A stretch of DNA of 64,000 nucleotides, taken from a virus. Position numbers and translations under genes: made by a program. Of this stretch, positions 18,031 through 41,043 are shown piece by piece. Position 1 is the first letter of the stretch. The number at the start of each line of letters is the position of its first letter. The stretch covers positions 1-64,000 of the IMG/VR virus record IMGVR_UViG_3300022752_000019; one strand, written 5' to 3'. The notes beneath the pieces are model-generated. The model did not search any database and was not told where the DNA came from. It worked only from the letters and a program-made list of their open reading frames with translations.

Positions 18031-19182
18031 ATGTATCGTGAAGAGTCCGTTTCGTCCTCGTTCAGCTCCGTAAATGGAAGAAGTCGCGGAGCGGTGGATC
18101 GAAAGGTGCGCGTGAACGGAGCAACTCTTCGAGAGAAAATTCGCACCAAAGACGGGAAGATCACAAAGGCCAAGGCACAGATGCGTAAGAATGCGGCAGC
18201 GCCGATGTACCACGTCGCCGGCGCGTTGGGTGGCGGGGCTCTCGGGGCTGGCGCCGGCTACCTGTCTTCGGAAGATGAGAAAACACGTAAGAAGCGGGCA
18301 CTCATCGGAGGGAGTGTTGGGGCGACTGGTGGCGCATTGTTGCCCTTCCTAATGCGCAGAGGAGTGAATGGGGCCGAACCTACACCTCCCAGTTCCGTAC
18401 ATAAAGGCGATATTCCTCCTGAAGCACCGAATATCACGGATGTAGGCGCATCGGCTGTGTCGAAGCAGCCGGCTGAATCGTTGCGTTCTTTCTTAAATAC
18501 AAGATTTTACGGCATTCAAGAGGACTATGGCACAATGGGTACCGACGATCCTTTCTTCACTAAGTACCCTAATATTCGTAGTTTGAATCCAGACTTTCCT
18601 GGGGTCCACGAAATGCCCTACGGGAATTTCCTTCTCAGAGATCCAGAGCTTAGAAAAAAGTTACACAAGATCGAGGAAAGCAGAGGACCGGTGCATGGCC
18701 CAAATCCAGCGGCCTTTGGAGTCGTTTACGACCCGACGAGGAACTCAACTGTCGTGCTCGACGTCCGTACGACGCCACGACAGGATAATTACGGACGACC
18801 GATACGTCAAACCGCTGCATACGAGTTTCCGGGAGGGGACTACACTGAGGAGTTTGCAGCACATCCTCCCAGTCGAGCAGCGATACAGAGAAAATTAGAA
18901 GAGCTGGATGAGTTTGAGCCTATCGCAGCGCAGCACAGAATACGGCAGAGTAAATCTGGGGTGATCCAGCCTCTGACAGCCGAGGAAAAGAACGAACTGG
19001 GAAGAAGGATGCAGACTACCACCGTAGAGGATCTCTACCCGGATGGGCTGCCAGAGTTCCTAAAGCACCTCGGGCAACCCAAGACTGCCTCCATTCTGAG
19101 TCCGGAGGCTCTTTACTTCTTCCGCGATGAGATGCAGAAAGGTCCGCCTATGCGTCACTCGGCGGAACGCGCAGACATCTGA
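18031..19182 (+). CDS. glycine-zipper putative head cargo protein
   Basis: KNAAA then GALGGGALGAGAGYLSSEDEKTRKKRALIGG; C-terminal KTAS and FFRDEMQK; start may be 18181. Confidence 0.7.
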   Translation: MYREESVSSSFSSVNGRSRGAVDRKVRVNGATLREKIRTKDGKITKAKAQMRKNAAAPMYHVAGALGGGALGAGAGYLSSEDEKTRKKRALIGGSVGATGGALLPFLMRRGVNGAEPTPPSSVHKGDIPPEAPNITDVGASAVSKQPAESLRSFLNTRFYGIQEDYGTMGTDDPFFTKYPNIRSLNPDFPGVHEMPYGNFLLRDPELRKKLHKIEESRGPVHGPNPAAFGVVYDPTRNSTVVLDVRTTPRQDNYGRPIRQTAAYEFPGGDYTEEFAAHPPSRAAIQRKLEELDEFEPIAAQHRIRQSKSGVIQPLTAEEKNELGRRMQTTTVEDLYPDGLPEFLKHLGQPKTASILSPEALYFFRDEMQKGPPMRHSAERADI

Positions 19183-19463
19183 ATCTCGGGAATCGAAGCC
19201 AGGATTAGCGCGGCGACAGTTGCCGCGGCGTCCTGAACTCGGCCGCGCTCGACGGCATCTGCCAGCTCGTCCATGATGTCGGCCGCAAGCAGCGCGATGT
19301 CTTGGGCGAGCTCGATCTCGTTCAGGTCAGCGCCTTGCTGCGCGCTGAGATGCTGAAGCAGCGCCGAGGGCGCTTCGTCAGGGCCAACCTGCGTCCGCAG
19401 GAGGGCAGAGACCAGTTTTACAGTCTTGACGGACTTACCGAAGGTACGACGAAGGCGAGCCAT
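19155..19463 (-). CDS. hypothetical helical protein
   Basis: AGGA RBS; preceded by sigma70-like promoter. Confidence 0.6.
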   Translation of the reverse strand: MARLRRTFGKSVKTVKLVSALLRTQVGPDEAPSALLQHLSAQQGADLNEIELAQDIALLAADIMDELADAVERGRVQDAAATVAALILASIPEIQMSARSAE

Positions 19464-19515
19464 TGTTGGTGCTTTCCTGTGGTTTGGAAAATCGGCCCCC
19501 GATGGGGACAGGTAT

Positions 19516-19544
19516 ATGTTAAAGTAGCAAGGAATCCTTGTCAA
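19516..19544 (-). promoter_or_regulatory. sigma70-type promoter
   Basis: TTGACA-N17-TAACAT on the minus strand. Confidence 0.6.
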
Positions 19545-19690
19545 CCTGACCCTGATCTGGCCGGCGCGAGGCCCGGTTTACTGGAAAACCGCTCTTCCAT
19601 CGGAAACACTATTTCCATCATTTCCGCTTGAGATCAGCAGGGTGCACGACGCTTCTTGTCGCGCTATGATTGGGCACTTCTGGAGACTTC

Positions 19691-20062
19691 ATGGCAACGA
19701 AGGTCAATGTTCGCTCGGCGATCCCTGGAGCCACGGCGGCCTCCCGACGGATCTTGAGCGGAGTCACCGCCGCAACCTCGGCGCCGACACTTCCTGGTGA
19801 TGGCGTCCTCCTTCAGCGCAACGAGTTCATCCATCTCTTCTTTGAGGTGGCTGGCACGAACCCTGTGTTCTCTGTTCAGATCTGGTGGTTCACCCCAATC
19901 AGTGGCAAGTGGCACAAGGGCGAGGCGCTCAACGTCAACGCGAACGATCTGGCCACCATCGAGGTGCAGGGACTCAGTCGGGTTGCGCTACAGGTGACGG
20001 CAGTCTCGGGAACAGGTACTCCAACTCTTGATGCCTGGCTTGGCCTTGTGGTGCCGGTATGA
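19691..20062 (+). CDS. putative virion beta-sandwich protein
   Basis: GGAG RBS; beta-rich; coupled to next gene. Confidence 0.6.
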   Translation: MATKVNVRSAIPGATAASRRILSGVTAATSAPTLPGDGVLLQRNEFIHLFFEVAGTNPVFSVQIWWFTPISGKWHKGEALNVNANDLATIEVQGLSRVALQVTAVSGTGTPTLDAWLGLVVPV

Positions 20063-21117
20063 GCCGCCGAATCTTCCGTCGTCGTGCGGGCATCGTGACT
20101 GGAGATCTGGTTCAGGATCCAGTGACTGACATTGCAACCCTGCGAACGCTTCCGGCCCGAGACGTCGACAACGGGCAGATCGTCCTGGTGCGTAGCGTCA
20201 ATCAGATCTACTCGTTCAAGTATGGGGACACGACCGCTGATGACGGAGACCTGTCCGTCGCGCCGACCTACGACTCCGCAGTTGGCCGCTGGCTCAAGGT
20301 CACCACTCCGATCCCCGAAGTCTCATTCGCACTTGGGGAACTGGAAGATGTTGACATCGATGGGGTGACTGACGGCGCAGTTCTGACCTACAACGATGGA
20401 ACGGAGACTTGGGGCTTCTCTACGCCCTGCGAATGCCCTGATCTCGAAGCCGCCGAGGAGGTGACATTCACGGGCGATGTCGAGGTCGAGGGAGACCTCA
20501 CCGTCGGCATGGGCCTCGGAAGCTCTGGAGGTGTCCTCGTTGGATCTGCCCACGAGTCAGACCTCGCGGTCGCCGACATGACCGGGACGTTCTCGGTCAA
20601 GCTTGGGACGCGCCGGCAAGTTCCCAACAGCATCGGCTCAAGAACTCACATCGTCATCAGCGGCGTTGTCGCCAAGATTGGCAGCCCAGTCGCGCAGCTG
20701 TCGCTCGGAGTGAACATCTCGGACTCAGCGGGTGTCACGGCCGGACTGTTCATCAGTGGCAATCTTGGAGATGCCGCCGGACTCGGAGTTGCAAACAACA
20801 GTGAGGTCGTGGCGCAGATCACGGTCCTCTTTGGCCCTGCGACAAGTGGAAGCCCGACGCAGCGAAACATTCATGTCAGTGGAACCTGCATTCAGGATCG
20901 AAGCGGAACAATCAACTCCTCATTCCTGCGTCGCTTCGTGACTGGCAGTCCTCCTGGCCCCGCTTCCTACGGCCAAGGGCTCACGATCGAGAACGTCGAC
21001 ATCTCGAATGATAGGATCCAGATGTCGCTGGAGACCAACAACAACGGGCAAACTGCCCCGAGTCACTACGAGTTCCGGACCAAGATGATCTCGATCGACT
21101 GCGCGAAGGGAAGCTAA
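20059..21117 (+). CDS. putative tail fibre / appendage protein
   Basis: DIATLR..ADDG..GRW head-binding-like N-terminus; LGELEDVDI..DGAVLTYN..W repeat typical of fibres. Confidence 0.55.
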   Translation: MSRRIFRRRAGIVTGDLVQDPVTDIATLRTLPARDVDNGQIVLVRSVNQIYSFKYGDTTADDGDLSVAPTYDSAVGRWLKVTTPIPEVSFALGELEDVDIDGVTDGAVLTYNDGTETWGFSTPCECPDLEAAEEVTFTGDVEVEGDLTVGMGLGSSGGVLVGSAHESDLAVADMTGTFSVKLGTRRQVPNSIGSRTHIVISGVVAKIGSPVAQLSLGVNISDSAGVTAGLFISGNLGDAAGLGVANNSEVVAQITVLFGPATSGSPTQRNIHVSGTCIQDRSGTINSSFLRRFVTGSPPGPASYGQGLTIENVDISNDRIQMSLETNNNGQTAPSHYEFRTKMISIDCAKGS

Positions 21118-21119
21118 AA

Positions 21120-21785
21120 ATGAACAAAACCGCGGCGTATCACTTGCTTCTTTCTCAGCATCCGCTGTGGCAGAAAACTGCGTTCGCGCCTTCTTCGCTT
21201 TTGCCCGCCGGAGGGGCCGCCATTGGGGGCGCCCTTGGTGGCATCGGTGGATATTTATCCACCGATGACAAAGAAAAGAGAAAGAAGCGTGCAGTTATTG
21301 GGGCGATCACCGGCGGAGCACTTGGAGGCGTGGGAGGAGAGGCAGTACGAAGATTTAGTATGCCCTCTGAGCCGCCGTTTAAACCTCCATTCGATCTTCC
21401 CCCTCCTGATCCCACTCGAAACAACATTCCGTTACGAACAAAGTTCTTACACGATGCCATTGATAAGCATCGTGAAGATTACCTGAGATATGAACTGGGA
21501 CTACTTGGAGTAAAGAACCGACTCACCCCTGATGAAGTTAGAGGACTTTTAGGTGGAATGGACGCCCTGGACTCAGCTCCGGTTTTAAACCTTTTGAGAG
21601 AAGGCGCTCCGAGGTGGAGGGCCGGTGAAGTTGAGAGACTATCCGGGGAATACAAAGGACTTAACATACCTGCCGGTGGATCTCTCATTGATGCACGACT
21701 GAGCAGAGCAGCCCGTGATGACGCCCGTGTTGAGGCCAAGAGGCGGGTAGACGAGTTCCTGGCTAACAGACCGAAGTCTCCATAA
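21120..21785 (+). CDS. glycine-zipper putative head cargo protein
   Basis: MNKTAAY..HPLWQKTA leader; GGALGGIGGYLSTDDKEKRKKRAVIG. Confidence 0.75.
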   Translation: MNKTAAYHLLLSQHPLWQKTAFAPSSLLPAGGAAIGGALGGIGGYLSTDDKEKRKKRAVIGAITGGALGGVGGEAVRRFSMPSEPPFKPPFDLPPPDPTRNNIPLRTKFLHDAIDKHREDYLRYELGLLGVKNRLTPDEVRGLLGGMDALDSAPVLNLLREGAPRWRAGEVERLSGEYKGLNIPAGGSLIDARLSRAARDDARVEAKRRVDEFLANRPKSP

Positions 21786-21790
21786 GGTGC

Positions 21791-21826
21791 TAAAAAAGAG
21801 CCCCGTCGTAAGACGGGGCTCTTAGT
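21791..21826. terminator. bidirectional terminator
   Basis: A-tract, AAGAGCCCCGTC-GTAA-GACGGGGCTCTT, between convergent genes. Confidence 0.85.
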
Positions 21827-21946
21827 TTACAGGTACCCGAGCAACGCGAGCCGGATGTACCCGTCCCCCTGGACCACCTCGAAGATCCCGATGCGGCTGC
21901 CAACCTTCTTGTAGGTGATCACGAGTTGTCCAAGGAGTTCGTCCAT
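21827..21946 (-). CDS. 39 aa hypothetical peptide
   Basis: TGATG overlap with ParB-like stop, GAGGAG RBS, ends at terminator. Confidence 0.5.
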   Translation of the reverse strand: MDELLGQLVITYKKVGSRIGIFEVVQGDGYIRLALLGYL

Positions 21947-22767: not shown

Positions 22768-22801
22768 GCCCTGGGCCTCCTATGGCTGTGGGGCATTAGG
22801 A

Positions 22802-23458: not shown

Positions 23459-23905
23459 CTACTTCGACAGGATCGGCAAGAAGTCGGGATTCGACAATGC
23501 CACAGATGCACAAGCCCACATTCGCGCGGAAGTCAGGGCATCGTAGGCGAGCTGGAGGTTGTGGCGAGGAGTGAACGCATCTCCGACACGAGACGCCACC
23601 AAAGCCTCATTTGCCCACATGCGGGCTTCGCGAACCTTCGTGAGCGCAGTCTCCTTGTCGACTGATTCCGGGCAAATGGCGAGGATGCGGTCGTACATCT
23701 CCTTGGTCGCCGCGTTGATCTTGGAGAAGTCTTCCTGAATCGGGAGGCGGCCTGCGCCAACCATCACCACGTTTGGGTCTACGAGAGGCTCCACCACATT
23801 CCGGAAAACGTGTCGAACTGCGGCCTCGTGCGCACGAAGAAGCTCGTAGCGCGGGGCTGTGTCCTCGTTCGGCGGCTGGTACACAAACGGGTCGCGCGGG
23901 GTCAT
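23459..23905 (-). CDS. Acb2/Tad1-like cyclic-nucleotide sponge
   Basis: FVYQPP..RYELLR..CPESVDKETALTKVREARMWANEALV matches the recalled FxYHxP..CPxSREKSLALTKLEEAxMWAN signature. Confidence 0.7.
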   Translation of the reverse strand: MTPRDPFVYQPPNEDTAPRYELLRAHEAAVRHVFRNVVEPLVDPNVVMVGAGRLPIQEDFSKINAATKEMYDRILAICPESVDKETALTKVREARMWANEALVASRVGDAFTPRHNLQLAYDALTSARMWACASVALSNPDFLPILSK

Positions 23906-23964
23906 GTGTTGTACTCCTGGCATGACTATATGCAGGGGTTCCAACGAGAGCAAGAGCATGGCGA

Positions 23965-23988
23965 TAAAAAACTCAGAAGATGTCATAA
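23965..23988 (+). promoter_or_regulatory. putative phage promoter (TAAAAA-N11-GTCATAA)
   Basis: Recurring motif in divergent gap before ATG 24018. Confidence 0.5.
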
Positions 23989-24017
23989 GTCTTGTGGCGA
24001 GAGCCATAGGAGCTGTA

Positions 24018-24875
24018 ATGAAGATCGTAAAGATGCCTCCAGGCCAACTGATCCCGAGCACTGACCCGAACTACGTGGATACTGGCCTCCTTGGTCTGGT
24101 CGAAGAACTGGCATGGGGAGAGGCTCTCATTCTCAAGGGCCCGAAGGGCTCTGGCAAGACGTTGGCGATTGAACAGTGGTGTGCGGCTGCTGAGATTGCG
24201 ATGGTCCGCGAGAACTGCAACAGCGGGACTGACGAGACCCAGCTTCTCGGGTCCTTCGGCATGGAGGGCAACGACGTCCACTTCACGCTGGGGGCACTCC
24301 CTCTGGCCATCGAAACGGCCAACAGCGAGGGTGGCTGCGTCCTCGTCCTGGAAGAAATCAACACGCTGCGCCCGCAGGTGCAGTCGATGGTCTTCTCCGT
24401 TGCGGACTACCGGAAATCGGTGGAGTGCCCGCACCTCGGAAGGAAGTTCACGCTCAGCCCCGATGCACAGCTTTGGGTACTGGGCACCATGAACCCCGGC
24501 TACGCCGGCACCTACCAGTTGAACGAGGCGCTCCGCAGCCGCTTCGACTTCATCGAGGTTGGCTACATGAGTCAGGCCAAGGAGAAGGAACTGCTCGAGC
24601 TGACGTTCCCCAACAAGCCGGATGTGGAGGAGCGTCGAATCGCGGCGCGTCTTCTCACCTTCGCGGAAGAGAGCCGGGCGTACCAGTGGGAGTACGCGCT
24701 CTCAACACGCGACCTGGTCCACACCATTCGTAAGATTCACCGCATCGGTCTTCCTCGGGCGCTCAAGCTCCTGGTCAACAAGTTTGATCCCGAGCACAAG
24801 CAGGCCATCGAAGCCCGCGTACAGTCCATGTTCAACATCAATCTTCAGGAGGTCGCCCTCTATGGAAAAGTTTGA
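24018..24875 (+). CDS. MoxR/CbbQ/CobS-type AAA+ ATPase
   Basis: GPKGSGKT, LVLEEIN, TMNPGYAGT..LNEALRSRF. Confidence 0.9.
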   Translation: MKIVKMPPGQLIPSTDPNYVDTGLLGLVEELAWGEALILKGPKGSGKTLAIEQWCAAAEIAMVRENCNSGTDETQLLGSFGMEGNDVHFTLGALPLAIETANSEGGCVLVLEEINTLRPQVQSMVFSVADYRKSVECPHLGRKFTLSPDAQLWVLGTMNPGYAGTYQLNEALRSRFDFIEVGYMSQAKEKELLELTFPNKPDVEERRIAARLLTFAEESRAYQWEYALSTRDLVHTIRKIHRIGLPRALKLLVNKFDPEHKQAIEARVQSMFNINLQEVALYGKV

Positions 24876-25200
24876 GAGCTACGACAGCATGCTGAAGTGG
24901 ATGACGACTCGCGGCCGCAAGTCGAAGTACTCCAGCCTGGTCCAGTACATCGAGATTGAGGTCGAGCGCGAGGCCGCAGTGCTTCTGCGTCGCGCGGTGC
25001 TGAACAGCACTCGGACTCAGGAGGAGCTCGAGAACGAGTGCCTCCAGGATGCCAAGGAGCACTACCTGGAGGAAGTCAACGAGTACCTCGACAGCGATGT
25101 GCCGCCGCCTCCGATGGACCATCGGGTGCTCATGGCCTACCGGCGCAAGCCCGTGGCTTGGGCGATCGCCTGTGAGATCTTCCGACTGGAGAGCGAATGA
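24862..25200 (+). CDS. hypothetical protein
   Basis: AGGAGG RBS, in operon. Confidence 0.7.
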   Translation: MEKFESYDSMLKWMTTRGRKSKYSSLVQYIEIEVEREAAVLLRRAVLNSTRTQEELENECLQDAKEHYLEEVNEYLDSDVPPPPMDHRVLMAYRRKPVAWAIACEIFRLESE

Positions 25201-27032
25201 CTCGGCCTCCTCTGAACCTCGGTGCGATGGCGGCATCTTCCGTAGAGGAAAATGTAGAGCGGATGCAGAACCTTGTTGAGACCTTCAACAAGATGCTGGG
25301 CACAGAGGTGGCGCTACAAGATGACCCCAACGGAGGCTGCACGGACTGCAAGACGTTCGTGCGAGTTCCGTTCGTAGATCCCGAGGCGTACCTCATCTGT
25401 GAGCATGAGCTGTCCCATCTTTTCGGGGAGACGGACCTCGACCTCACAAAGGAGTTCGTAACGAAGGCGGTTGAGCGGCTGCTGAATCGCGCGAAGATCC
25501 CGATCACGTCCCCCGATGCGACCCCTTACAAGGGAAAGCTCACGAAAATCGTTCAGACGCTGTGGAACGTCCTCGAGGACTGGAGATGCTGTAGCATCTG
25601 GGGAGAGATCTACTTCGGAGGCGCGTCCCTCCTTTCGCAGAGATGGAAAGACATCGCGCAGTACCAGCGTGAGGACGAGGCCCGGAAAGACCTCGTCCCC
25701 TATCTCATGCGCGCAGCCGCAGGCTTTGAGACAGACGGAGCCCCTCCCGAGTTCAAAGCCTGCCGCCCGCACATGGACAAGGCGCGGGCCATGGTGGAGT
25801 TGGTGGACAACTCCGCCTGCCTTGCGATCACGGCGCGACTGGTAGACGACATTGCCGACGAGCTTCTGCGGCAGAACCCGCCGAATAGTTCGTTGAACCA
25901 AAACAGTCCGCAGCAGCGAGGGCTCAACGCACTGGCAGCTCTTGGAAATGCGGTGGCACCTCCAAGCTCAGCACCGCCCAACCCATCGAACAAGCCCTCG
26001 GAGCAGGGGATTGGCGCTCCAGATGTACTGCCAGATCAGTCAAACAAGAACTTGGTCGGCTCTCGGGTCTCCGCTGCAACAATGCGGCAGATTCGCAAGC
26101 TGATGACCGCGAGTGATGACGACCCGGATCAGGACGGAGTCACCAGCTTTCAGAAGATGGTGCAGGCCGGCGCAGAGAAGATGAACGAGCGGATTGCTGC
26201 GGCAAAGGCTGAACTCGGCAAGAACCGCAAGTCGGAGAAGGAGCAGAGCACGGAGCAGTTGTCGGGTGCCGCAGTCTCTTGTGGAATCCGGGCAACGCAC
26301 GTCACTCCTCCCTTCAAGCTGCCGAAGCCCAGCAAGAACGCAGGCAACGTTCGGCGGTATCTCGAGCAGGTTCGACTCGAGCAAGAGCGGATCTCGAGTG
26401 CCTCCGGTACGCGGGTGAATGTTCAGAAGATCATTCAGGCGAAGGCAGCCGGAAACTTGGGCTCAATGCCCCTGTTCCAGCGCAAGCATGAGGTCGGCGG
26501 GATGCAGCTCCTCATCCTCGCTGACGTCAGTGGGTCAATGGCCGGCAGTGGGCTTGAGATCCTCGACCAGGCGATCGCCGATGTCGAGTTCTCCTGCAAG
26601 GGACTCAAAGTCGACCTGAACCTCTGGACCTTCTCAACCGACCTGTACTTCTTCACGAAGATCGGATCGGTGTGCTCCGTGCCTGGGATGTACATGAGCC
26701 TCACCAACATGGTCCGCGCACTGGACACCGCCATTGAGTGGCAGAAGCAGGGAACGGGAGATCGCGCAGTCATCCTGATGACTGACGGTCTGCCCACTCA
26801 CCTCCGCGGAAGAAAGTCTACGGGCTCCGCGCTCGAAGACCTTGCGGCGGTGATGAAAGAGATCCGCCGCGAGGGAGTCGTGCTCACAACCCTTGCCATC
26901 GGAGGGCACGTCGATCTCTTCAACAAAGTCTTCGGCGCAGGGCGCTATGGACTGGTCAGGAACATTGAAGACCTTCCCGCCGCGCTTACAAACGCGGTAA
27001 AGGTCATCATCGAAGCTCATCTGAAGAGCTAA
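25197..27032 (+). CDS. VWA domain protein with N-terminal HExxH (CobT-like)
   Basis: HELSH, NVLEDWR, MIDAS DVSGS, MTDG. Confidence 0.85.
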   Translation: MTRPPLNLGAMAASSVEENVERMQNLVETFNKMLGTEVALQDDPNGGCTDCKTFVRVPFVDPEAYLICEHELSHLFGETDLDLTKEFVTKAVERLLNRAKIPITSPDATPYKGKLTKIVQTLWNVLEDWRCCSIWGEIYFGGASLLSQRWKDIAQYQREDEARKDLVPYLMRAAAGFETDGAPPEFKACRPHMDKARAMVELVDNSACLAITARLVDDIADELLRQNPPNSSLNQNSPQQRGLNALAALGNAVAPPSSAPPNPSNKPSEQGIGAPDVLPDQSNKNLVGSRVSAATMRQIRKLMTASDDDPDQDGVTSFQKMVQAGAEKMNERIAAAKAELGKNRKSEKEQSTEQLSGAAVSCGIRATHVTPPFKLPKPSKNAGNVRRYLEQVRLEQERISSASGTRVNVQKIIQAKAAGNLGSMPLFQRKHEVGGMQLLILADVSGSMAGSGLEILDQAIADVEFSCKGLKVDLNLWTFSTDLYFFTKIGSVCSVPGMYMSLTNMVRALDTAIEWQKQGTGDRAVILMTDGLPTHLRGRKSTGSALEDLAAVMKEIRREGVVLTTLAIGGHVDLFNKVFGAGRYGLVRNIEDLPAALTNAVKVIIEAHLKS

Positions 27033-27039
27033 CCATTCT

Positions 27040-27057: not shown

Positions 27058-27066
27058 AGGTGGTAC

Positions 27067-28159: not shown

Positions 28160-28714
28160 TCAGAACGCGAATGCCGGCCCGAAGGACATGCGTCCCATAG
28201 TGGGCCTTTCTCCGCGAACCAGATTTGAGCGTCCCATCGGAGCAGCTCCGGAAGATCTCGCGGGTAGAAGCTCGCTCGCAGAACGCGTATCAACTACAGC
28301 AGGTCTCCGGGTTGGCAAGGCTGCCCTGACCTGAGCGTTACCGCGGCCAATTACGTTTCTAAGAACGTCCTCGTTTTGGAGCGCACGGAGGCTACCCGTG
28401 TTCAGCATGTTTTGTGCCGACCGCACGCCAGCAACCGAGGCCCTCCTGCCCAGGCCAGTCAGACCGACACGGTTTAGCGCGCCACCCAGGGCAGTCAGCC
28501 CACGGGCCATGAGGCCGCCTTCCTTGTCAAGCCCAGCCGCGTATGCCTCGCGGAGAGCTTGATGGATCTCCTCTTCCGATCCGTATTCCGCCACCTTGAC
28601 AAGGTACTCGTAGACCTCAACTTCATCAGCCGAAGCAGACTTGATGAGATCCTCGTCCGATACCCAGAGGGGATGAGCAGAAAGGACGTAGTTGTAGGCT
28701 GCGATCTTATCCAT
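28160..28714 (-). CDS. putative head cargo protein
   Basis: MDKIAAY..HPLW leader; KSAS, KVAE, KEGG. Confidence 0.7.
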   Translation of the reverse strand: MDKIAAYNYVLSAHPLWVSDEDLIKSASADEVEVYEYLVKVAEYGSEEEIHQALREAYAAGLDKEGGLMARGLTALGGALNRVGLTGLGRRASVAGVRSAQNMLNTGSLRALQNEDVLRNVIGRGNAQVRAALPTRRPAVVDTRSASELLPARSSGAAPMGRSNLVRGERPTMGRMSFGPAFAF

Positions 28715-32900: not shown

Positions 32901-33657
32901 CTCCGTCCAGGTCATCCTGACCTCGGAATCCCGAGCCTTCTACGCGGTAGGTTGTGGCAGAGGCAAGTGGCGACCCCTCCCCTGCGGTGAGTGCGGGGAG
33001 GGCACTTCCGGTAATGAACAGGGACGACGACGCCCCGTAGGCTCGGCTCTGAACAACGACACCTGCGTCACTGCTCAGATCTTCATCGAAATCGGAAAGG
33101 TCACTAAACGCAGTAGCGGTGATTCCAGGAACCGAGCTAAGCGCGAGGGCGACGGCTTCTGCGCTCATCGTTCCGCTGAAAGGGATCACAGTCGGGTTGG
33201 CGTTGCTCGGCGAGTTCGCCTTGATGTTGAGCAGAACCGTAGTGCTGCCGAAGACAAAGGATCCTCCACCAGAGTCGAAGACAACCAGCGCGCTGCGCGC
33301 GTCGTTGAGCGCCGCAAGGAAGGCGGAGCCCGTGCTGCCGTGGCTTCCGCGCGGAAGCGTGGTCATCGCACCCGCGTAGAGGAGGCGCGCGCCAACCTGC
33401 GCTTCGTCGACGTTGATCTCGTCGATGTTGTCACGCGGGTCGGGGAACTCTGCCTGAGTGATCGCCAGCGCAGCTTGCGTGTACCGCTGCGTCGTGTACT
33501 CGGCGTCGCTGTTCACGCCGCCAGAGTTGTCCAGGGCCCGGACGATCTGGTAGCACGGAGCCACGACAACCGGGTTGAGGGTCGGAGTCGCAACCGCGGC
33601 AGGAGTCTCACGAAGCTCCTGAACAACGATCACACCGGGGCGATTTTCACTTGCCAT
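29929..33657 (-). CDS. contractile tail sheath protein (1242 aa)
   Basis: N-terminal RPGVIV; C-terminal RELSI..DF..FIGR..PAYPCNKIRVTI. Confidence 0.85.
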   Translation of the reverse strand: MASENRPGVIVVQELRETPAAVATPTLNPVVVAPCYQIVRALDNSGGVNSDAEYTTQRYTQAALAITQAEFPDPRDNIDEINVDEAQVGARLLYAGAMTTLPRGSHGSTGSAFLAALNDARSALVVFDSGGGSFVFGSTTVLLNIKANSPSNANPTVIPFSGTMSAEAVALALSSVPGITATAFSDLSDFDEDLSSDAGVVVQSRAYGASSSLFITGSALPALTAGEGSPLASATTYRVEGSGFRGQDDLDGDLTTPWVEFHVGDLPSGPFFLRGKDGRLFAGTASAPVFTGSGATIPLKAATATTPGDEFWADGTQVGGAVVTAVESSRFKLGVLDSARSTFDADGNITSSVYSTIEVSTPSAGVPFAPVFAYFIANNLVWGSVTPAPVAAELVGDDTDAIAALPAQLMGAEFSATIPALTGGTISFRIVEDGVTLDDVTHTFTAAVGADLTEARDSLNDNADLAGLVFSLGTVGSDKILLIKTVKTGADQSVTILPGGSAAVHTIFGLAAGDSATGVDVEYAERASVATTVVDHALATSVTFTFAVTHDDVSLPSWTATVPGAEASLADFAETLAGSAAVGGVYKIYFKNDSQLTHLIDMTIDGGNLVFTLVRGGDTNDLTVSVPAVTRVAFEGGSGTGTGAGDDILKGTRIEFTLDSNPHVYEVDFTSNSLREAVDAINETVGGAVDVASEDDLALVLTSAFAGAASSVNVDEDSSAYDVLFGSSSATGEGRPNPSFYVDGEGIAHISPHALRNRSTGAPLDLSASGARVYIEYVGLRLDVTAAARNPALLTFQDVDTMDAAIGPISTENPLALACFLMLQNAPSQSVSALGVSAVNDAAPMGTTTAHLSALTFLESKDVYAIAPMTDDPFVQQLYSLHADSMSAPEQRGERIALLWQGVPTRRMDTSILAGNDAEVNGSTNSITLGSTPIEGLAALGLNPAELDFSDNVFLELVVSVLGETNVYKFSVSAVNGTALTLRSTFASDENTDGFYDTPALNWTDDENLSGMQYVLKQRGSKLLIPGTTLTDKAAVAATAAAQGEAYNSRRTFLVFSGNVDTSIDGIVTPVPGYYTCAAIAAMIAEQSPQQPFTQVSMTGFSKVYGTDDTFSENQMDTIADGGRYILINQGGRIASRHQRSTKSTSIEARELSITKSIDFLAKGLRATNRVFIGRFVINPGFIDQLVMANEGFLARSVQAGVVNGAALNSVLQDSSAPDTVLIEVTVQPAYPCNKIRVTIVS

Positions 33658-33663
33658 GGGAGA

Positions 33664-34509
33664 TTACTCCTGGTCGTCCTGGAAGGCTTCGAGACCCGAG
33701 ATTTGGAAATCTTCGATCCCGCTGTGAATGACTTCGGTAACTGGTCTGTGTGAGGTCTGGATACCGTTGCTTCGGTTGACGATTCTACCACCACCAAGAC
33801 GACGTACGCGGACATCGTCGGTGTTCATCGCCAATCTTATTGAAGAGATGGTCTCATCCTCTCGGAACTCGTACTCAGAGGCTCTTCTCGAGCCGGTGAT
33901 TAGATCAAGCGATCTAAACTGAGGGGATTGTTTCGGCGTGGTTTCCCACGTCCACTGAAGCTGGAACGGAATGTTAACCTGACACATGATCAGCTGCCCG
34001 GGATCTCCCATGACAAGCTGACCCGGAGGACTCGGTGAGTTTACAGTCGGGGAGGGCCGTGCGATAGAGTAAAAGCCACCAGGGCTCTCCAACAGTCGCT
34101 GATTCACCCGAGTGTGGTGTGCGACGAGATGTGCAAGACGCATCGCGGTGATGTCAGAGTCCGCGAGCGTGTAGACAACAAGGTGACCAGCCAGCAGGTC
34201 GGTGCGCTTCCGGGCCCCAGTATTGGGGTTGTAGGACAACAAGTTGTCGATGCCGATGCCGGCGAACTGGTACGGGCCCATCACGACAGTGATTGCCGGC
34301 CGCTTGCCAACTACTTCCGTATTTAGGGGAGCCTGGCCCCGGATCATGATCTCCGTAACTTCATCATCGGGCTCCCAATGGAAGGTGCCCTTGGGCATCC
34401 AGTTAAAGAGTCCTTGAAGGTACTGCACATACAAACGCATGGCAAAGACGGCAGGGTCGTCACCTCTGCCGATCTCGAGTGCTGTGCGTCTGGTATGCGC
34501 GAAGCTCAC
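33664..34509 (-). CDS. putative tail terminator / neck protein
   Basis: Position before sheath; KRPAITV motif. Confidence 0.5.
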   Translation of the reverse strand: MSFAHTRRTALEIGRGDDPAVFAMRLYVQYLQGLFNWMPKGTFHWEPDDEVTEIMIRGQAPLNTEVVGKRPAITVVMGPYQFAGIGIDNLLSYNPNTGARKRTDLLAGHLVVYTLADSDITAMRLAHLVAHHTRVNQRLLESPGGFYSIARPSPTVNSPSPPGQLVMGDPGQLIMCQVNIPFQLQWTWETTPKQSPQFRSLDLITGSRRASEYEFREDETISSIRLAMNTDDVRVRRLGGGRIVNRSNGIQTSHRPVTEVIHSGIEDFQISGLEAFQDDQE

Positions 34510-34823
34510 TTACGACTCTTCTCCTCAATCTCGCGGCGCTTGTCCATTCTATCCCTGATGTACTCGGAAAGCGCGTAACTTCCGACCGCAGATGCAGCTC
34601 CGGCCGCTCCGGCTCCGAGAGATTGAAGGTGCTTTAGAACTTCAGCCTTTCTCTCCGGGCTCATCTTTGCGAGCCGGGAGGAGATGCCGGGCGTATCGAG
34701 GAGGCGGCGCGTTAGCGCGCCTCCTCCGATACCTCCAATCAGGGAGCCAGCTCCTGCTGCCAGAGTAGGAAGACCGACGATCTTGACGATGCTTTCCTTC
34801 TTTTCGGGTTTCTTTTCACTCAT
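34506..34823 (-). CDS. small glycine-zipper protein
   Basis: Two Gly/Ala helices and a basic tail. Confidence 0.6.
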   Translation of the reverse strand: MSEKKPEKKESIVKIVGLPTLAAGAGSLIGGIGGGALTRRLLDTPGISSRLAKMSPERKAEVLKHLQSLGAGAAGAASAVGSYALSEYIRDRMDKRREIEEKSRK

Positions 34824-35698
34824 AGTTTCACCCCGTACATCCCAAATACGTCGACGGTCGTTGCCTTGGAGGCTTCCTGCGTGTGTGCATGTTGGTAGTT
34901 CCGAGGAGGGACGAGCACCACTGTGGAAGTATCTACCTTGAGGGGGATCTTGTCCTCAATCGATCCTTTCTGGATCAATGCCATTTTGATCTCGGCGCGA
35001 ACCAGGGAGCCGGACATCGTTGTTCCACCGGACTCAACGACTCTGTACCTACGGTTCTGGTTATCAACGATCAAGTCAAGAGGCTTGATGCCAGGGCTCG
35101 GGCCGCACCGAAGCTGTGCCATCTGAACCCGGCGATGATCTTCGACCATAACTTGCTCAGTCTCAGGCATTGCGTCAATCTGCGCCCAGAAGGATGTCGG
35201 GTAGTGATATCCGCCGCTAAATCCTGTACCCCAGCACGTAGGACAGCGTGCGTCTATGGTCTTTCCAAGAACTGTGTCGTAGCAGGAGGGGCACCGCTGA
35301 CCAAATGACCTACGTGGAAACAGCCAACACTTGACTCCCACGAACTCCTCGAACAAGACGCGTTCGAGTCGAATCATCTCCGTGGCGAGGATGTTCGGAG
35401 CACCTTCCTTGTCAAACGTATCGGAGTAGATGCTGCGGTCCGTTGGGACGTGTCGGCAGCGAATTCGGTAGTACAGAGTTCTCGCATTGGTAGTAATTGC
35501 GTGAACGCTATTGTCTCGAATGAAGTACTGATCAATGAGCGGCCCAGCGATAGAGTCCCATGGTCCCGCCTCGGCCTCCGAGCGTTCCACGTAGAACTCA
35601 TACTGCTGAATGTCCTCCGTCGTCGGCTCAATCTCCCAAAACACGTCATTGTGGTTCAGAGAGAAGGAGACAACACGCTCATTTCTAATTTGCAGCAT
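34820..35698 (-). CDS. putative head closure / neck protein
   Basis: CPSC..CPTCWGTGFSGGY zinc motif; position in neck cluster. Confidence 0.55.
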   Translation of the reverse strand: MLQIRNERVVSFSLNHNDVFWEIEPTTEDIQQYEFYVERSEAEAGPWDSIAGPLIDQYFIRDNSVHAITTNARTLYYRIRCRHVPTDRSIYSDTFDKEGAPNILATEMIRLERVLFEEFVGVKCWLFPRRSFGQRCPSCYDTVLGKTIDARCPTCWGTGFSGGYHYPTSFWAQIDAMPETEQVMVEDHRRVQMAQLRCGPSPGIKPLDLIVDNQNRRYRVVESGGTTMSGSLVRAEIKMALIQKGSIEDKIPLKVDTSTVVLVPPRNYQHAHTQEASKATTVDVFGMYGVKL

Positions 35699-36176
35699 TG
35701 GTTGCCTTCTTTAGTGCACGACGAGTTAGTCCCGCAGAAAGAAGGCCTGCCCCAATAGCCGACAAGCCAGCGGCTGCGTATGGGTTATCCGCGCGCATCT
35801 TTGCAATACGCTGTCTGAGGTCCAGAACTGCACGAGACAACTTGGAGGGCTTGCCTTCCTGTCTCTCGACCTCCCTCAAGCGAGCCGCATCCGCAGCCAG
35901 TTCAGCCTGTTCCTTGCTCAAGCCCGACTTGGTTTTCTTTGACTGATACCCCGAGTAGCCTGCGCCAATCAGGCTCATGATGCCCCCTGCAATGAGCTCA
36001 GGGCCATTCTCTTTTAGAAGAGCGTGACGAATCTTTTCTTTTACAGGAGAAGACGCTGCGACTTTGGTTGTATCCGCCCAAAATTGAACAGCCGCAAGTT
36101 GGCGCTCACGCGGTGATACCGCCCTCCAAATTTCGTCCGGAATCTCGGAATGCGAATGAAGAAATAAGTCTTCCAT
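35685..36176 (-). CDS. putative head cargo protein
   Basis: TKVAAS followed by two Gly-rich hydrophobic helices. Confidence 0.6.
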   Translation of the reverse strand: MEDLFLHSHSEIPDEIWRAVSPRERQLAAVQFWADTTKVAASSPVKEKIRHALLKENGPELIAGGIMSLIGAGYSGYQSKKTKSGLSKEQAELAADAARLREVERQEGKPSKLSRAVLDLRQRIAKMRADNPYAAAGLSAIGAGLLSAGLTRRALKKATNAAN

Positions 36177-36183
36177 GCCGGCC

Positions 36184-36684
36184 TCAGAAGTTGGAGAAGT
36201 AGACGCCATTGATGACGAAGTACTCGGACTCTACACCGCCCCCTTCGAATGCGTACTCCACATTCAGGGAGGACTTCACACGCAGTTTTTTCTGCTCATA
36301 GCTGTTGCGAAGCATCTGAATCCAGCCCAGAAGAAACTGAGACTTGTCGGAGACAGAGACAGAGATGCCGCCGTCCGAGTAGTTCATTTGGTTCCGGAGC
36401 TGGAGAAGTCCAACAGACTCAAGGATGCGGATGACCGCCCCTTCCCGAAGCATGCTGAGAGACGGAAAGTTCTTCAGCCCCACGTTCCCGATAAAGGGCG
36501 GGGTCGAGTTGTAGTCATCGATCGCGTCTACGACAGCCCACGCGATCATTCGATCACTCGTTTCCTCTCCCGAGATGAGTCGGTTGAGCTCGGGGAAGTC
36601 CCGAAGGTAGAGACGGATCACCGCAACGACTTCGTTCATCCGCTTGCTGGCGGATGGGATGGTTGTCGTAGACTCGAAGGACAT
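36184..36684 (-). CDS. putative head-tail adaptor
   Basis: IRLYLRD..YSDGGISVS; downstream of capsid gene. Confidence 0.55.
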   Translation of the reverse strand: MSFESTTTIPSASKRMNEVVAVIRLYLRDFPELNRLISGEETSDRMIAWAVVDAIDDYNSTPPFIGNVGLKNFPSLSMLREGAVIRILESVGLLQLRNQMNYSDGGISVSVSDKSQFLLGWIQMLRNSYEQKKLRVKSSLNVEYAFEGGGVESEYFVINGVYFSNF

Positions 36685-37696: not shown

Positions 37697-37715
37697 GTCA
37701 TCTCCTGTGTAAGTG

Positions 37716-37747
37716 AAAAGCCCCGGCCCGATGACCGGACCGGGGCT
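37716..37747 (-). terminator. terminator after major capsid gene
   Basis: AGCCCCGG..CCGGGGCT stem with TTTT on minus strand. Confidence 0.7.
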
Positions 37748-37770
37748 AAAGACCGCCAGGGCCTCAACGA

Positions 37771-38898
37771 TCAGAAGACGTTGATGCTCGGGAAGGTCAG
37801 ACCCTCGGCGACCTTGTTGTTGAGTGCGCCGATGGCGGACTCTTCGACAGGGCGCACGGCCGAACCGCTCGCGTGGGTAGCGTCACCAGGGTAGAGCTCG
37901 AGCTTCACCACCGCAGCGATGTTGCCGAAGCCCATACCGACGTCCATCCAGGCCTGCCAGAAGATTCGGTTCGCCACCTTGTCGATGTAGAACTTCACAT
38001 CGTTCAGGGTGTAGTTGCGGCCGAAGAACTCCGGAGCCGTGAAGACGTAGACGTTCCCCTCGCGGAGAATGTCGTTCTTGATGGTGCGGATGATGCGGAG
38101 GCCGAGGACCTTGTTGTAGGTGTAGCCGTCCAGGGCGGTCTCGCTCTGGAGACGATCACCATAGTCCTCGTGGGTCCACTGGTCGAAATCGTCCGTGTCA
38201 GACTCAGTCATGAGCATGAGCGCGGGACGAAGACGGCCAGCGCGGATGGTCTCCGAGCCGACGACGATCTGGCGCTTGAGGAGCTTCTTGATGTTCACGA
38301 TGTCAGCGCGCTGAATCGCGTACGTCTCGAAGTCCGTTTGCCCACCGCCCGACTGGGTGGCGAGCACGCCCTTGATCTTCGAGATCGACACACCCGTGCC
38401 GACGTAGAATGCAGAGGAGCCGGAGTTGCCCTCAGCCTGCATGGCGTCGATGCAGGACTCAACGTGGTTCAGGAACTCGCGGTCCTTCACCTCGACCATG
38501 TCCTTGAGCGAGTTCTCCTCGATGATGCGCGTGATCGGCATCTCGTAGGCCATCAGCTCCTGCTCAACGATCTCGAACTTGAGGGACGAGATGGTGAAGA
38601 AGCCGATCGCGTACCGCTTGCCGTTCACGTACTCAGCGGTGGGCTGCCCACGGAAGTTGACGGACATCGCCCGGCTGCCCGGCTCAATGTCGACGATCTT
38701 CACGAGGGTGTCGTGCTCGGTGCTGCGCTGAAGGTCGCCACGCACAACACGCTCGTTCGGGACGATCATGTCGGCAAAGCTGGACTCGCGTAGGCGGTCC
38801 TTGATGTAGTTCAGGCTGGCGGCGGCGGTCTTCGTCGGTCCCTCAGTCTCGAGGCGCTCGATGAAGCCCGAGTTCACCATATCGGCAGAGTAGTCCAT
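37771..38898 (-). CDS. major capsid protein
   Basis: 375 aa, extreme codon bias, downstream of protease/scaffold genes, followed by terminator; KTA at residues 23-25. Confidence 0.75.
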   Translation of the reverse strand: MDYSADMVNSGFIERLETEGPTKTAAASLNYIKDRLRESSFADMIVPNERVVRGDLQRSTEHDTLVKIVDIEPGSRAMSVNFRGQPTAEYVNGKRYAIGFFTISSLKFEIVEQELMAYEMPITRIIEENSLKDMVEVKDREFLNHVESCIDAMQAEGNSGSSAFYVGTGVSISKIKGVLATQSGGGQTDFETYAIQRADIVNIKKLLKRQIVVGSETIRAGRLRPALMLMTESDTDDFDQWTHEDYGDRLQSETALDGYTYNKVLGLRIIRTIKNDILREGNVYVFTAPEFFGRNYTLNDVKFYIDKVANRIFWQAWMDVGMGFGNIAAVVKLELYPGDATHASGSAVRPVEESAIGALNNKVAEGLTFPSINVF

Positions 38899-38923
38899 GG
38901 TGTTCTCCTACGGGGCTGGGGGA

Positions 38924-39517
38924 TCAGAACTGGTAGCCGGGCTGGAACAGCACGGTGGCGTCGTTGGTGCCGTGGACCTGGAGGATGGTCCCGGCGTACC
39001 AGGAACCAGCCGTCGGAGCAGGGGCCGTCGTAGCTGCGTCTGCGGCAGAGGCCGACACCAGCGCAGAGACCAGGCGACCGTTGGCATCCTCGCAGATGTA
39101 CACGTACACCTGCTCACCCTCGTCGCCCGTGTCGCAGACGATCATCTTCGTCCGGAACTCAAAGCCAGAGGGGCCAGTGATGCAGTGCGCCTTGCGGGTC
39201 AGCTGGGCGTCGTAACGGCCGCGCTCCTGGAAGTACAGGAAGCAGGGACGGGACGCAGCAGCGTTCTGTGCGTCATTTACGATCGAGAGGGCCGATGCCG
39301 CGCCAGACCCGGTGACTGCGCCAGAGGCGAGGCTGCGCGTGAACTTGCCGCCAGACATCTGAAGCCACTCACCCTCCTGGAGAGGATGTGCGACGTCAGG
39401 GTTGAACACGTTCATCGAGGCGCTGCCCTCGACGTTCGCGCTCGCCTGGAAGGCCAGGTCACGCGTGTAGAGGGTAGAGTACCCAGGGTTCAGGATGGTA
39501 ACGAACTGACCAGCCAT
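38924..39517 (-). CDS. putative capsid decoration protein
   Basis: Immediately upstream of capsid gene, high codon bias. Confidence 0.5.
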   Translation of the reverse strand: MAGQFVTILNPGYSTLYTRDLAFQASANVEGSASMNVFNPDVAHPLQEGEWLQMSGGKFTRSLASGAVTGSGAASALSIVNDAQNAAASRPCFLYFQERGRYDAQLTRKAHCITGPSGFEFRTKMIVCDTGDEGEQVYVYICEDANGRLVSALVSASAADAATTAPAPTAGSWYAGTILQVHGTNDATVLFQPGYQF

Positions 39518-39529
39518 GGTTGTCTCCGT

Positions 39530-39898
39530 TCATTCGCCAGTGAGGCAGAAAGAGGTGAGGGGGTCGAGGGCCGATGATCTACCCGGGCGATCGGATGGAT
39601 CACCAATGCGGATGGTACCCGCACTCGCCATCTTGACAGCCTCTCTGACATTCTCGAGCTGCGCATGACCCCTGAGATGCGCAACCTTCTCTTCGAACGT
39701 CATGTGAGCATTCAAGCCCTTTTCCTCCATCTCCCGCGCGAGCTCAGCTACCTGAGAGTCGCGGGCGATGGAGGCAAGCTTTGTGCGGAGCTGGATGTTC
39801 TCCTGCTCAAGACTCGCGACCTTTTCGGTCAGCGAGCGAATGACCGTAGCACTCTTCGCGGAGACTACAGCCAGTTCTGCACTACCGATCTTTAGCAT
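39530..39898 (-). CDS. putative scaffold protein
   Basis: Coiled coil with KVAS, KLAS, KVAH, KMAS. Confidence 0.5.
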   Translation of the reverse strand: MLKIGSAELAVVSAKSATVIRSLTEKVASLEQENIQLRTKLASIARDSQVAELAREMEEKGLNAHMTFEEKVAHLRGHAQLENVREAVKMASAGTIRIGDPSDRPGRSSALDPLTSFCLTGE

Positions 39899-39912
39899 TG
39901 CAGTCCTCGCGG

Positions 39913-41043
39913 TCAGAACTTTCTCAAGAGTTGATTCAGGCGGGCTTGCCTGGCTTCCTCTTCTGTATGCACTGGCGAAGATGCAATCTTCGCATGGAGC
40001 GATTGTAGCGAAGAACTCATGCCTTCGCAAACCCCAATTAGTGCTTCCTTGACATGACTGCCGAGGGCGCCACTATCAATGGCATCAAAGAGGACGGAGT
40101 ACTCAGCCAAGGATGCCTCCTTTACTCCTTTGAAGCCAATTCCAAACGGATAAAAGCCATCGTCCATGGCATTGATGGCCCGTACCTGCGCAGGGTCAGT
40201 GACAAACTCCGGGGGGTTGAAAGGCAGCCCTGCTTTGTTCATCCTGCGTGCATGGCCTCCTACCCCTCCAGCTACTGCTCCTATAGCGCCACCGGAGAGT
40301 GTCCTCAGACCCACTTTCCGCTTTCCCGTCACTGGGTCCTTTTTCTCCGACGCGTATCCGGCAGCTGCGCCAAGTGCGCCGCCAGCAGCATGCTCAGCCA
40401 ACTGCGCCTTGATCTGACCTGAAATGGATGCCATTTTGGTGCTCCTTGCAGAAGGATGGCAGTCATTGCCACCCAGTGCGCCGCCAGCCTCTTTGGTTGT
40501 ATCAAAAGGGGGTTTCTTTCCCTGTTTGAGGCTTTCTTCTACCCTGCTTAGCTTCTTGTCGAGGGAGGGCAATCCGATGCCGAAAGGAGCAAACTTTAAC
40601 TTATCCTCGTTGATACTTCTCTTTAAGTTATTCAGGATGCGCAAATCGTCGGAGAGTTGACTCCGTGACGGAGGATTATACCCGACCCTTCCCCGGATAT
40701 CGCTCAGCTTACGCCACAACGATGACTCCAACATTCCAGCGCGGGCATCATCAGGATCGAAGCCCTCTCGTCTAGCCCTAAAGTATACCTGGTAGTCGTC
40801 TGGGGATAACGACCCGTAATACCTCTTGTTTCGGAGGACTCCTCCAGTAAGAAGTCCTCCGAGCGTCCCGCCTGCTCCGCCTACAAGTGTTCGCGCGCCT
40901 ACCCTACGCTTTCCTGTCTTTTCGTCTTTTTTCTCCGAAAGATACCCGGCACCGCCACCCAAAGCCGCGCCTACCGCGGCCTCGGTAGCCGGCGTCAAAT
41001 ACCTCGAGAGATCGCCCATCCCGTGGGCTAACGACGGAGACAT
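39913..41043 (-). CDS. head cargo protein with two glycine-zipper modules
   Basis: GAALGGGAGYLSEKKD..GKRRVG and GGALGAAAGYASEKKD..GKRKVG; KEAG, KMAS, KEAS, KIAS. Confidence 0.7.
   Translation of the reverse strand: MSPSLAHGMGDLSRYLTPATEAAVGAALGGGAGYLSEKKDEKTGKRRVGARTLVGGAGGTLGGLLTGGVLRNKRYYGSLSPDDYQVYFRARREGFDPDDARAGMLESSLWRKLSDIRGRVGYNPPSRSQLSDDLRILNNLKRSINEDKLKFAPFGIGLPSLDKKLSRVEESLKQGKKPPFDTTKEAGGALGGNDCHPSARSTKMASISGQIKAQLAEHAAGGALGAAAGYASEKKDPVTGKRKVGLRTLSGGAIGAVAGGVGGHARRMNKAGLPFNPPEFVTDPAQVRAINAMDDGFYPFGIGFKGVKEASLAEYSVLFDAIDSGALGSHVKEALIGVCEGMSSSLQSLHAKIASSPVHTEEEARQARLNQLLRKF

Follow-up and report, generated by a model that had tools for sequence, protein, structure and literature searches.

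The first 64 kb of the virus record IMGVR_UViG_3300022752_000019 (164,603 bp, 58.3% GC), hereafter the window, encode several proteins that share a glycine-zipper hairpin, and the question they raise is whether such proteins are cargo: whether they are packed in the phage head, cut there, and released into the host envelope with exchangeable payloads attached, as a preliminary description of the window had proposed. Three genes carry the hairpin, P0001 (18031-19182, plus strand), P0002 (21120-21785, plus strand), and P0003 (39913-41043, minus strand); further P-numbers denote homologous proteins from protein collections, L-numbers related loci, and G006 a related virus fragment. We found that the hairpin is a real, rare, old, and lineage-restricted protein module and that, judged from homology breakpoints, it is one of several parts (leader, zipper, payloads, and conserved tail) that are exchanged between related phages at Lys-x-Ala(-Ser/Ala) joints.

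The hairpin module

The hairpin spans about 50 residues, in which a charged loop joins two Gly/Ala-rich helices of the GxxxG kind. A regular expression (regex) applied to all six frames of the 164,603 bp identifies it at exactly four sites in three genes, the number previously claimed: one each in P0001 and P0002 and two in P0003 (modules A and B; Table 1). The first site, said to begin at 18181, is real but lies inside a gene that begins at 18031. When profiles were built with one copy left out, every omitted copy was found again among 2,426 six-frame open reading frames (ORFs), with independent E-values (iE) of 2.6e-8 to 6.5e-12, and the sole additional match (34506-34823) was weak (iE 0.0075). 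In the alignment of the copies (A1), Gly is invariant at positions i, i+4, and i+8, the loop rich in Ser, Asp, Lys, and Arg is conserved, and an Arg closes the hairpin. Because the copies share only 38-58% identity in protein and 45-54% in DNA, they are old, and a recent duplication is ruled out.

The module is also rare. A profile of five hairpins matches 37 proteins at E ≤ 1e-3 among 1.84 billion representatives. Neither megablast of 18-42 kb nor a tblastn search with P0003 matched any of 50,697 deposited phage records, so that the genome is without a close relative there; its distant cultured relatives are Salmonella phage Arash and the Vibrio phages D69, D181, and D148. In related genomes searched whole (eight virus records and Arash), strong copies were found only in G006, where they occupy the slots of P0003 and P0002, and weak matches only in three of the eight records, with none in the other four or in Arash. 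Presence of the hairpin is patchy even among relatives with 90-94% identical capsid proteins. Among Pfam families, the best match is Gly-zipper_YMGG (PF13441; cut-off 28.9 bits), whose scores of 22.6 bits (copy 1, E 8.8e-5) and 22.5 bits stay below threshold. For PF05433 (Glycine zipper 2TM, the SlyB type), the score is 13.7 bits where 24.2 are required, and the Rick_17kDa and TraT models likewise match sub-threshold.

The three zipper genes have a GC content of 0.53-0.55 and a third-position GC content (GC3) of 0.46-0.55, as compared to 0.590 (standard deviation [sd] 0.038) and 0.665 (sd 0.092) for 151 genes, which places them among the lowest in GC3. The payload segments are AT-richer, as had been reported (GC 0.51-0.52 against 0.59), but the shift is modest (1.2-2.2 sd) and affects whole genes rather than payloads alone.

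Exchange of parts at Lys-x-Ala joints

The preliminary description had envisioned a single layout of leader, K-x-A site, zipper, and swappable payload, and this layout holds in the P0002 family but is reversed in P0003. In P0002 (221 aa), the first 21 residues and the hairpin are conserved in 10 proteins from independent assemblies (alignment A2), with conserved columns extending to R77; after the Arg-Arg that closes helix 2, at least six unrelated C-termini follow, several of them resembling coiled coils on inspection by eye, and the payload of P0002 is swapped for other sequences in P0008, P0012, P0013, P0022, P0025, and P0028. The conserved zipper with exchanged payloads that a profile search of relatives was predicted to reveal is thus seen in this family, and the opposite outcome, fixed zipper-payload pairings of ordinary composition, was not found in relatives. 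The leader is itself portable: besides three proteins in this genome (P0002 and the products of 28160-28714 and 152015-152452), its profile detects at least eight different ones in relatives, where it is sometimes present in tandem and is followed by unrelated sequence, and in P0009 a P0002-type leader is joined to a P0001-type zipper at K-E-A-S. By word search P0002 has only three close relatives, and a scan for the leader-plus-zipper family yielded one locus in viral contigs and none in the JGI metagenomes.

With two other genes, P0002 forms a tight unit (19670-21785, plus strand), in which it comes last. At L043, the homologue of the middle gene of this unit weakly matches a tail-fibre PHROG (E 4.5e-4) and is followed by a 686-aa repeat-rich protein; a viral contig scan for relatives of 20059-21117 gave no match. 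This plus-strand islet may be structural rather than replicative. The early promoter core GTCATAA does not occur near P0001 or P0002.

P0001, which had been described as a leader-zipper-payload gene, is instead a small carrier gene, situated after the GyrB-like gene, that has received an insertion. In four loci (L039-L042, with GyrB 74-75% identical), the gene 3' of GyrB encodes a homologue of 187-189 aa whose similarity to P0001 is limited to P0001 residues 1-56 and 351-370, and because these two stretches are contiguous in the relatives, residues 54-350 of P0001 represent an insertion between K-N-A and K-T-A-S. The last ~110 residues of the relatives are absent from P0001. A search of 5.8 billion proteins with the P0001 payload returned only the payload itself, and the Atlas gave no usable match.

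P0003 shows the converse arrangement. Gene order is strictly kept in 38 loci around capsid homologues, with P0003 flanked by the head-operon gene 41084-42049 on one side and by scaffold-like and capsid genes on the other. Of P0003 itself, conservation extends to no more than the last ~70 residues, which show 73-77% identity in relatives with a 92-94% identical capsid protein and end in a conserved Arg/Leu-rich C-terminus. The region ahead of this tail ranges from 0 to 307 aa across relatives. Some P0003-type genes have no front module, some have one zipper (L006, P0004, P0010), and some have two (this phage, P0011); L006 and P0004 retain module B only, and the front part can also be a different Gly-rich module (L008) or an unrelated domain (L003). 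The notion of a conserved zipper with a swappable payload therefore does not apply to P0003, where the zipper modules are variable and the 70-residue C-terminal tail is conserved. Similarly, the claim that an unrelated segment follows each copy is borne out for P0001 and P0002, but both P0003 modules, as every zipper module of the P0003 family, end in P-F-G-I-G, though their lengths differ. In some relatives, the homologue of 41084-42049 is extended C-terminally by long mosaic parts with other zipper types.

The virion module contains such carriers as well. P0007, a homologue of the protein encoded at 35685-36209, holds a zipper-plus-payload cassette between two K-T-A-S joints, and this cassette is 39% identical to residues 25-210 of P0002 (E 7e-16), zipper and payload together. 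In L013 (13106-14287), the homologue of the same carrier has grown to 394 aa, with three tandem zipper modules of another subtype, each of which starts at K-E-A followed by Ala or Ser. Nine looser modules of Gly helix and basic tail had been listed in addition to the four hairpins; those at 34506, 35685, 41084, 45873, and 55386 are clear and that at 58763 is weaker, but the one at 42385, which is present twice, is internal, and those said to end 27314 and 56387 are unconvincing. In the product of 55386-56390, a mini-domain with four cysteines is combined with a divergent hairpin, a coiled coil, and a Gly helix with basic tail; the protein matches phrog_5880 and keeps its arrangement in L063 and L064. 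In the scaffold-like protein encoded at 42385-43674 (minus strand), three acidic repeats each contain K-x-A, two near-identical modules of ~92 aa each close with a Gly helix and a basic stretch, and nine K-x-A-[SA] sites are present as compared to 1.1 expected.

As had been observed, a K-x-A site precedes three of the four zippers (K53-N-A in P0001, K19-T-A in P0002, and K203-M-A-S ahead of zipper B in P0003); zipper A of P0003 is N-terminal and has no such site before it. Homology breakpoints fall on K-x-A in all cases read but one, the zipper-to-payload boundary, and because no K-x-A site lies between them, a zipper stays joined to the payload that follows it. The codons at K-T-A-[SA] sites vary as they do in the genome at large, which rules out DNA microhomology at the joints and indicates that the joint signal is one of peptide and not of DNA. 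In total, K-x-A-[SA] was observed 81 times as compared to 35.6 expected, with the excess borne by a small number of head-module genes on the minus strand (9 against 1.1 expected, 8 against 0.4, 7 against 0.4, and 7 against 0.8). In the capsid protein, K-x-A is kept at residues 23-25 in relatives whose capsid proteins are 37-94% identical, and a site near the N-terminus is conserved in Arash gp226 as well.

A candidate head-maturation protease

Because the motif stands at the N-terminus of the capsid protein and is abundant in scaffold-like head proteins, K-x-A could be the cut site of the phage head-maturation protease. Our candidate for this enzyme is the 560-aa product of 43652-45334, for which the assignment is suggestive only. 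Its homologues include Arash gp222, which was detected in virions and is annotated only as 'structural protein', and proteins of D69 and Bacillus phage G, and its Foldseek list has many entries for herpesvirus assemblins and T4 gp21 (E 0.4-1.4). The cut site of assemblins is (V/L/I)-x-A↓S, and that of HK97 gp4 is between a Lys and a Ser; because these sites resemble it, K-x-A-S is a plausible site for a protease of the assemblin/HK97 fold. A number of results show how weak the assignment is: the AlphaFold2 (AF2) model of the candidate is poor (predicted local distance difference test [pLDDT] 57); T4 gp21 tops both VIA-align searches (48,161 chains in one), with a Z of only 3.0-3.3; hhalign places the candidate Ser194 on the catalytic Ser114 of HK97 gp4 with a P of only 0.19; hhalign against T4 gp21 was negative; and a search of the genome for Pfam S77 and S78 gave no match. 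A PDB profile search with the candidate returned chance cytochrome matches only. A 197-aa protein encoded beside the capsid gene (38924-39517) was also considered as the protease and was dropped, as its PDB profile search was empty, it has no leader, and it is more like a capsid accessory protein.

Structure and membrane likeness of the hairpin

AF2 models of the P0002 family comprise leader helices, a low-confidence linker over K19-T-A21, hairpin helices at residues 28-46 and 51-79, and payload helices at 103-132 and 192-215, the last two with a pLDDT of ~90. Among solved structures, SlyB matches the hairpin best (Foldseek probability 0.91; VIA Z 7.0 over 68 residues, root mean square deviation 5.0), and the next matches are further hairpins embedded in membranes, TraT, and alpha-pore-forming toxins, the last by their heads. 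No cysteine or hydrophobic signal region was found ahead of any of the four zippers, and K-x-A places Lys at -3, which is unfit for a signal-peptidase site; reading the leader as a Sec signal peptide or as that of a lipoprotein was rejected on these sequence grounds. With weakly hydrophobic helices and neither signal peptide nor lipobox, the hairpin has a profile that fits a protein which would be soluble until it meets a membrane. Such behavior is known from glycine-zipper toxins, which permeabilise membranes and are soluble until membrane contact (PMC12955049), and in Agrobacterium the type VI secretion system (T6SS) effector Tde1 needs its N-terminal glycine zipper to bring its C-terminal DNase into prey (PMC10240207).

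The zipper proteins do not look like holins: they are 221-383 aa long (holins, under ~150), their hydrophobicity is low (best 19-residue Kyte-Doolittle mean 1.1-1.5), and their neighbours are GyrB, ParB, and head genes. The isoelectric points (pI) of the full proteins are 9.3-9.8. In Arash, the region from the protease-like gp222 to the capsid protein gp226 includes gp220, gp221, and gp224, which are rich in K-x-A and possess Gly helices; all three were detected in purified particles, in a permissive proteome that is available as an annotation table without a peptide list.

Genomic setting

The minus strand from ~27 to 65 kb forms a virion block with many genes that could not be annotated, and the plus strand from 11 to 27 kb carries the GyrB-like gene and an AAA_5/VWA pair, with ParB on the opposite strand. 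After PHROG and Pfam scans, most of the ~45 neighbouring proteins were left without annotation, and a look-up of protein clusters returned singletons on short contigs. The coordinates of the features are collected in Table 1.

Table 1. Positions of the zipper proteins, their parts, and associated genes (numbering of the window unless stated).
Feature	Position	Strand	Basis or remark
GyrB-like gene	16073-17962	+	In plus-strand 11-27 kb region
P0001, 383 aa, small carrier with inserted zipper/payload cassette	18031-19182	+	Translation; comparison with L039-L042
K53-N-A joint, start of insertion	18187-18195	+	Homology breakpoint
Zipper hairpin copy 1 (P0001)	~18199-18360	+	Regex, alignment, leave-one-out profile
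P0001 payload, 240 aa, acidic	18361-19080	+	GC 0.518; pI 5.6
K351-T-A-S joint, end of insertion	19081-19092	+	Homology to relatives resumes exactly here
P0002 portable N-terminal leader (M-x-K-x-A-A-Y ... H-P-L-W), ending K19-T-A21	21120-21182	+	Alignment A2
Zipper hairpin copy 2 (P0002)	21192-21359	+	Regex, alignment, leave-one-out profile; AF2 helices
P0002 payload, helical, ~140 aa	21357-21785	+	AF2; homology to P0007 cassette
Second gene in window with P0002-type leader	28160-28714	-	Tail-proximal virion block; leader profile
Sheath gene	29929-33657	-	Virion block; implies contractile tail
Virion-module carrier, 174 aa, Gly helices and basic tail	35685-36209	-	Homologues P0007, L013
Major capsid protein	37771-38898	-	K23-T-A near N-terminus; GC3 0.87; 38 related loci
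P0003, 376 aa, two zipper modules and conserved tail	39913-41043	-	Head operon
Conserved C-terminal tail of P0003	39916-40122	-	Starts at invariant K308-x-A-S; second invariant K352-x-A-S
Zipper hairpin copy 4 (P0003 module B)	40234-40395	-	Regex, alignment, leave-one-out profile
K203-M-A-S upstream of zipper B	40429-40437	-	~17 residues before zipper B
Zipper hairpin copy 3 (P0003 module A)	40828-40995	-	Regex, alignment, leave-one-out profile
Head-operon protein	41084-42049	-	N-terminal 237 aa conserved; C-terminal Gly helix and basic tail variable
Candidate head-maturation protease, 560 aa	43652-45334	-	Tentative; invariant K37-x-A39, H137, H138, S194-M-G
Terminase	48167-51187	-	Virion block
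Divergent fifth zipper-type hairpin with C-terminal Gly helix/basic tail	55386-56390	-	Arrangement conserved in relatives
Further gene with P0002-type leader, outside window	152015-152452 of record	-	Leader profile

Three further observations concern the surrounding genes. The terminase ORF encodes 1006 aa, of which the terminase profile spans residues 521-981 only; residues 112-521 match a PHROG of unknown function and a primase-like family, and could be an insert or an intein. At 4217-5485 (plus strand), the C-terminal half of the product reads as a trimeric dUTPase, and the 5' half of the frame is a simple-repeat tract of 75% GC that is probably non-coding in that frame. The pair at 23859-27032 (plus strand), a MoxR-like AAA_5 ATPase followed by a VWA-domain protein, is kept in relatives.

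Discussion

The zipper proteins most likely work as follows. The leader or the tail would bring them into the assembling head, where they would be trimmed at K-x-A; the trimmed zipper-payload units would exit with the DNA through the contractile tail; and the hairpin, marginally hydrophobic and soluble, would oligomerise in the host envelope, where it might tether the payload or take it across as the Tde1 zipper does for its DNase. This working, from head loading and K-x-A trimming to exit with the DNA and membrane action of the hairpin, is in our estimation evenly balanced between true and false; in its favour are the K-x-A excess in head genes, the weak gp21/HK97-like protease candidate, the SlyB/TraT-like model of the hairpin, and the permissive Arash virion proteome. 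The case for it is best for P0003, which lies in the head operon, and less good for P0001 and P0002. A more elaborate proposal would see in these genes a polymorphic set of head-packaged effectors belonging to an uncultured contractile-tailed clade, in which the leader would load each protein, a Lys-x-Ala-specific protease would trim it, and a SlyB/TraT-like hairpin would insert itself such that the payload is planted in or carried across the host inner membrane at infection; we consider this proposal improbable.

Several findings weigh against head-packaged effectors. P0001 and P0002 are plus-strand genes outside the virion operon, and their neighbours are of replication type (GyrB, ParB, and AAA/VWA). 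The hairpin is modelled by AF2 with a pLDDT of only 54-66, Z values of 5-7 are common for helical-hairpin matches generally, and the hairpin helices reach only 1.1-1.6 on the Kyte-Doolittle scale, below the classical transmembrane grade. The payloads have no significant match in Pfam, PHROG, PDB, or BFVD and no likeness to known effectors. The Arash proteome was permissive enough to include 116 of 252 proteins, replication enzymes among them, and Arash is without this zipper subfamily.

Alternatively, the zipper proteins might never be packaged and might act inside the infected cell as phage membrane proteins, bound to the inner membrane from the cytoplasmic side, where they could serve superinfection exclusion, the timing of lysis, or the anchoring of a replication or partition complex, with K-x-A representing flexible linkers or the sites of another protease. 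This explanation, which we regard as unlikely but deserving of serious consideration, would account for the position of P0001 and P0002 beside GyrB-like, ParB, AAA_5, and VWA genes; moreover, the look-alike TraT is an exclusion protein, and holin-like phage proteins with glycine zippers do exist (PMC9025707). However, the lack of a signal peptide or lipobox closes the outer-membrane route that SlyB and TraT follow, the hydrophobicity of the hairpin is too low for Sec-type insertion, and proteins of 221-383 aa with long soluble payloads are unlike holins. Nor would one expect, for proteins that act only inside the infected cell, that the same cassette should be found in virion-module carriers and in the head operon (P0003), or that the leader and K-x-A code should be common to head proteins.

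In another explanation, the zipper proteins are loaded in the head and trimmed at K-x-A but have no membrane role, being instead structural or DNA-condensing proteins of the capsid interior: the zipper would only pack helices into an internal core or inner body, with binding of the packaged DNA left to the basic loops and tails. The location of P0003 and most of the looser modules in the head operon, the conserved Lys/Arg-rich charged loop and basic C-terminal tails, the high pI of the full proteins together with their low hydrophobicity, and the presence of the Arash Gly-helix proteins in virions are all as one would expect under such circumstances. Yet the best look-alikes of the hairpin, in sequence as in structure, are membrane-embedded hairpins, the P0001 payload is acidic, and the fast exchange of payloads, the patchy presence, and the low GC3 would better suit accessory cargo directed at the host, so that we consider purely capsid-internal proteins improbable. 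Finally, chance similarity among low-complexity segments, which the Gly/Ala-rich composition and sub-threshold Pfam matches might suggest, is refuted to near certainty by the leave-one-out recovery of each copy, the conserved register of loop and helices, and the retention of the same columns in homologues from independent metagenomes.

Head-packaged cargo trimmed at K-x-A would have precedents. In phage T4, the internal proteins IPI-III and Alt carry a capsid targeting sequence that is removed by the prohead protease gp21. As in T4, a short N-terminal leader is common here to otherwise unrelated proteins, this leader ends in a motif that also marks the capsid and scaffold proteins, and the genes are situated partly in the head operon and partly elsewhere. 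Unlike T4, the motif is Lys-x-Ala(-Ser/Ala) rather than Leu/Ile-x-Glu, the proteins are multi-module chains with internal joints and a zipper after the leader, the candidate protease is not recognisably gp21 by sequence, and the cargo role is a predicted one. SlyB (PF05433) and TraT (PDB 7ojf, 9e2v, 9fs5) have a two-helix GxxxG hairpin of similar length, which forms oligomeric rings in the membrane; the phage proteins differ from them in having neither signal peptide nor lipobox cysteine, in their sub-threshold Pfam scores, in a loop that is longer, conserved, and highly charged, and in the fusion of the hairpin to variable payloads. With Tde1 they share a zipper that is N-terminal to the payload, marginally hydrophobic, and soluble before delivery, and a contractile injection machine, through which delivery would here occur by analogy; the two are unrelated in sequence, and the phage payloads are without recognised function.

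The exchange of parts likewise resembles that of polymorphic toxins and of the 'polyvalent proteins' of phages and conjugative elements reportedly described by Iyer, Burroughs and Aravind in 2017, whose exchangeable C-terminal parts are attached to a constant delivery part; there, too, unrelated modules form chains, and the composition departs from that of core genes. The modules here differ in being small (50-250 aa), in being joined at a specific tripeptide, and in containing no recognisable toxin or enzyme domain; no immunity gene was seen, though no systematic search for one was made. The ejection proteins of short-tailed phages (P22 gp7/16/20 and T7 gp14/15/16) are internal to the head, exit with the DNA, and are rebuilt in the host envelope (PMC8954989). 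Their mosaic pattern of conservation is similar, whereas the present phage has a contractile tail, as its sheath gene indicates, shows no homology to them, and has modules that are much smaller and more numerous. Our searches of the open literature returned no publication that deals with glycine zippers among the head cargo of phages.

If the zipper proteins are indeed head-packaged effectors, then what many uncultured phages of a large group, and cultured ones such as Arash, carry in their virions would be readable from sequence by leader, K-x-A joints, and zipper, and it would become clear how phages gain and lose proteins directed at the host, with protease sites as the joints. A first role would also be found for the many glycine-zipper proteins of these head operons, and with a set of self-inserting hairpins phages would have their own equivalent of the T6SS delivery of effectors that depends on a glycine zipper. 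Regardless of the mechanism, the joints are a clean natural case of domain shuffling confined to a three-residue peptide signal.

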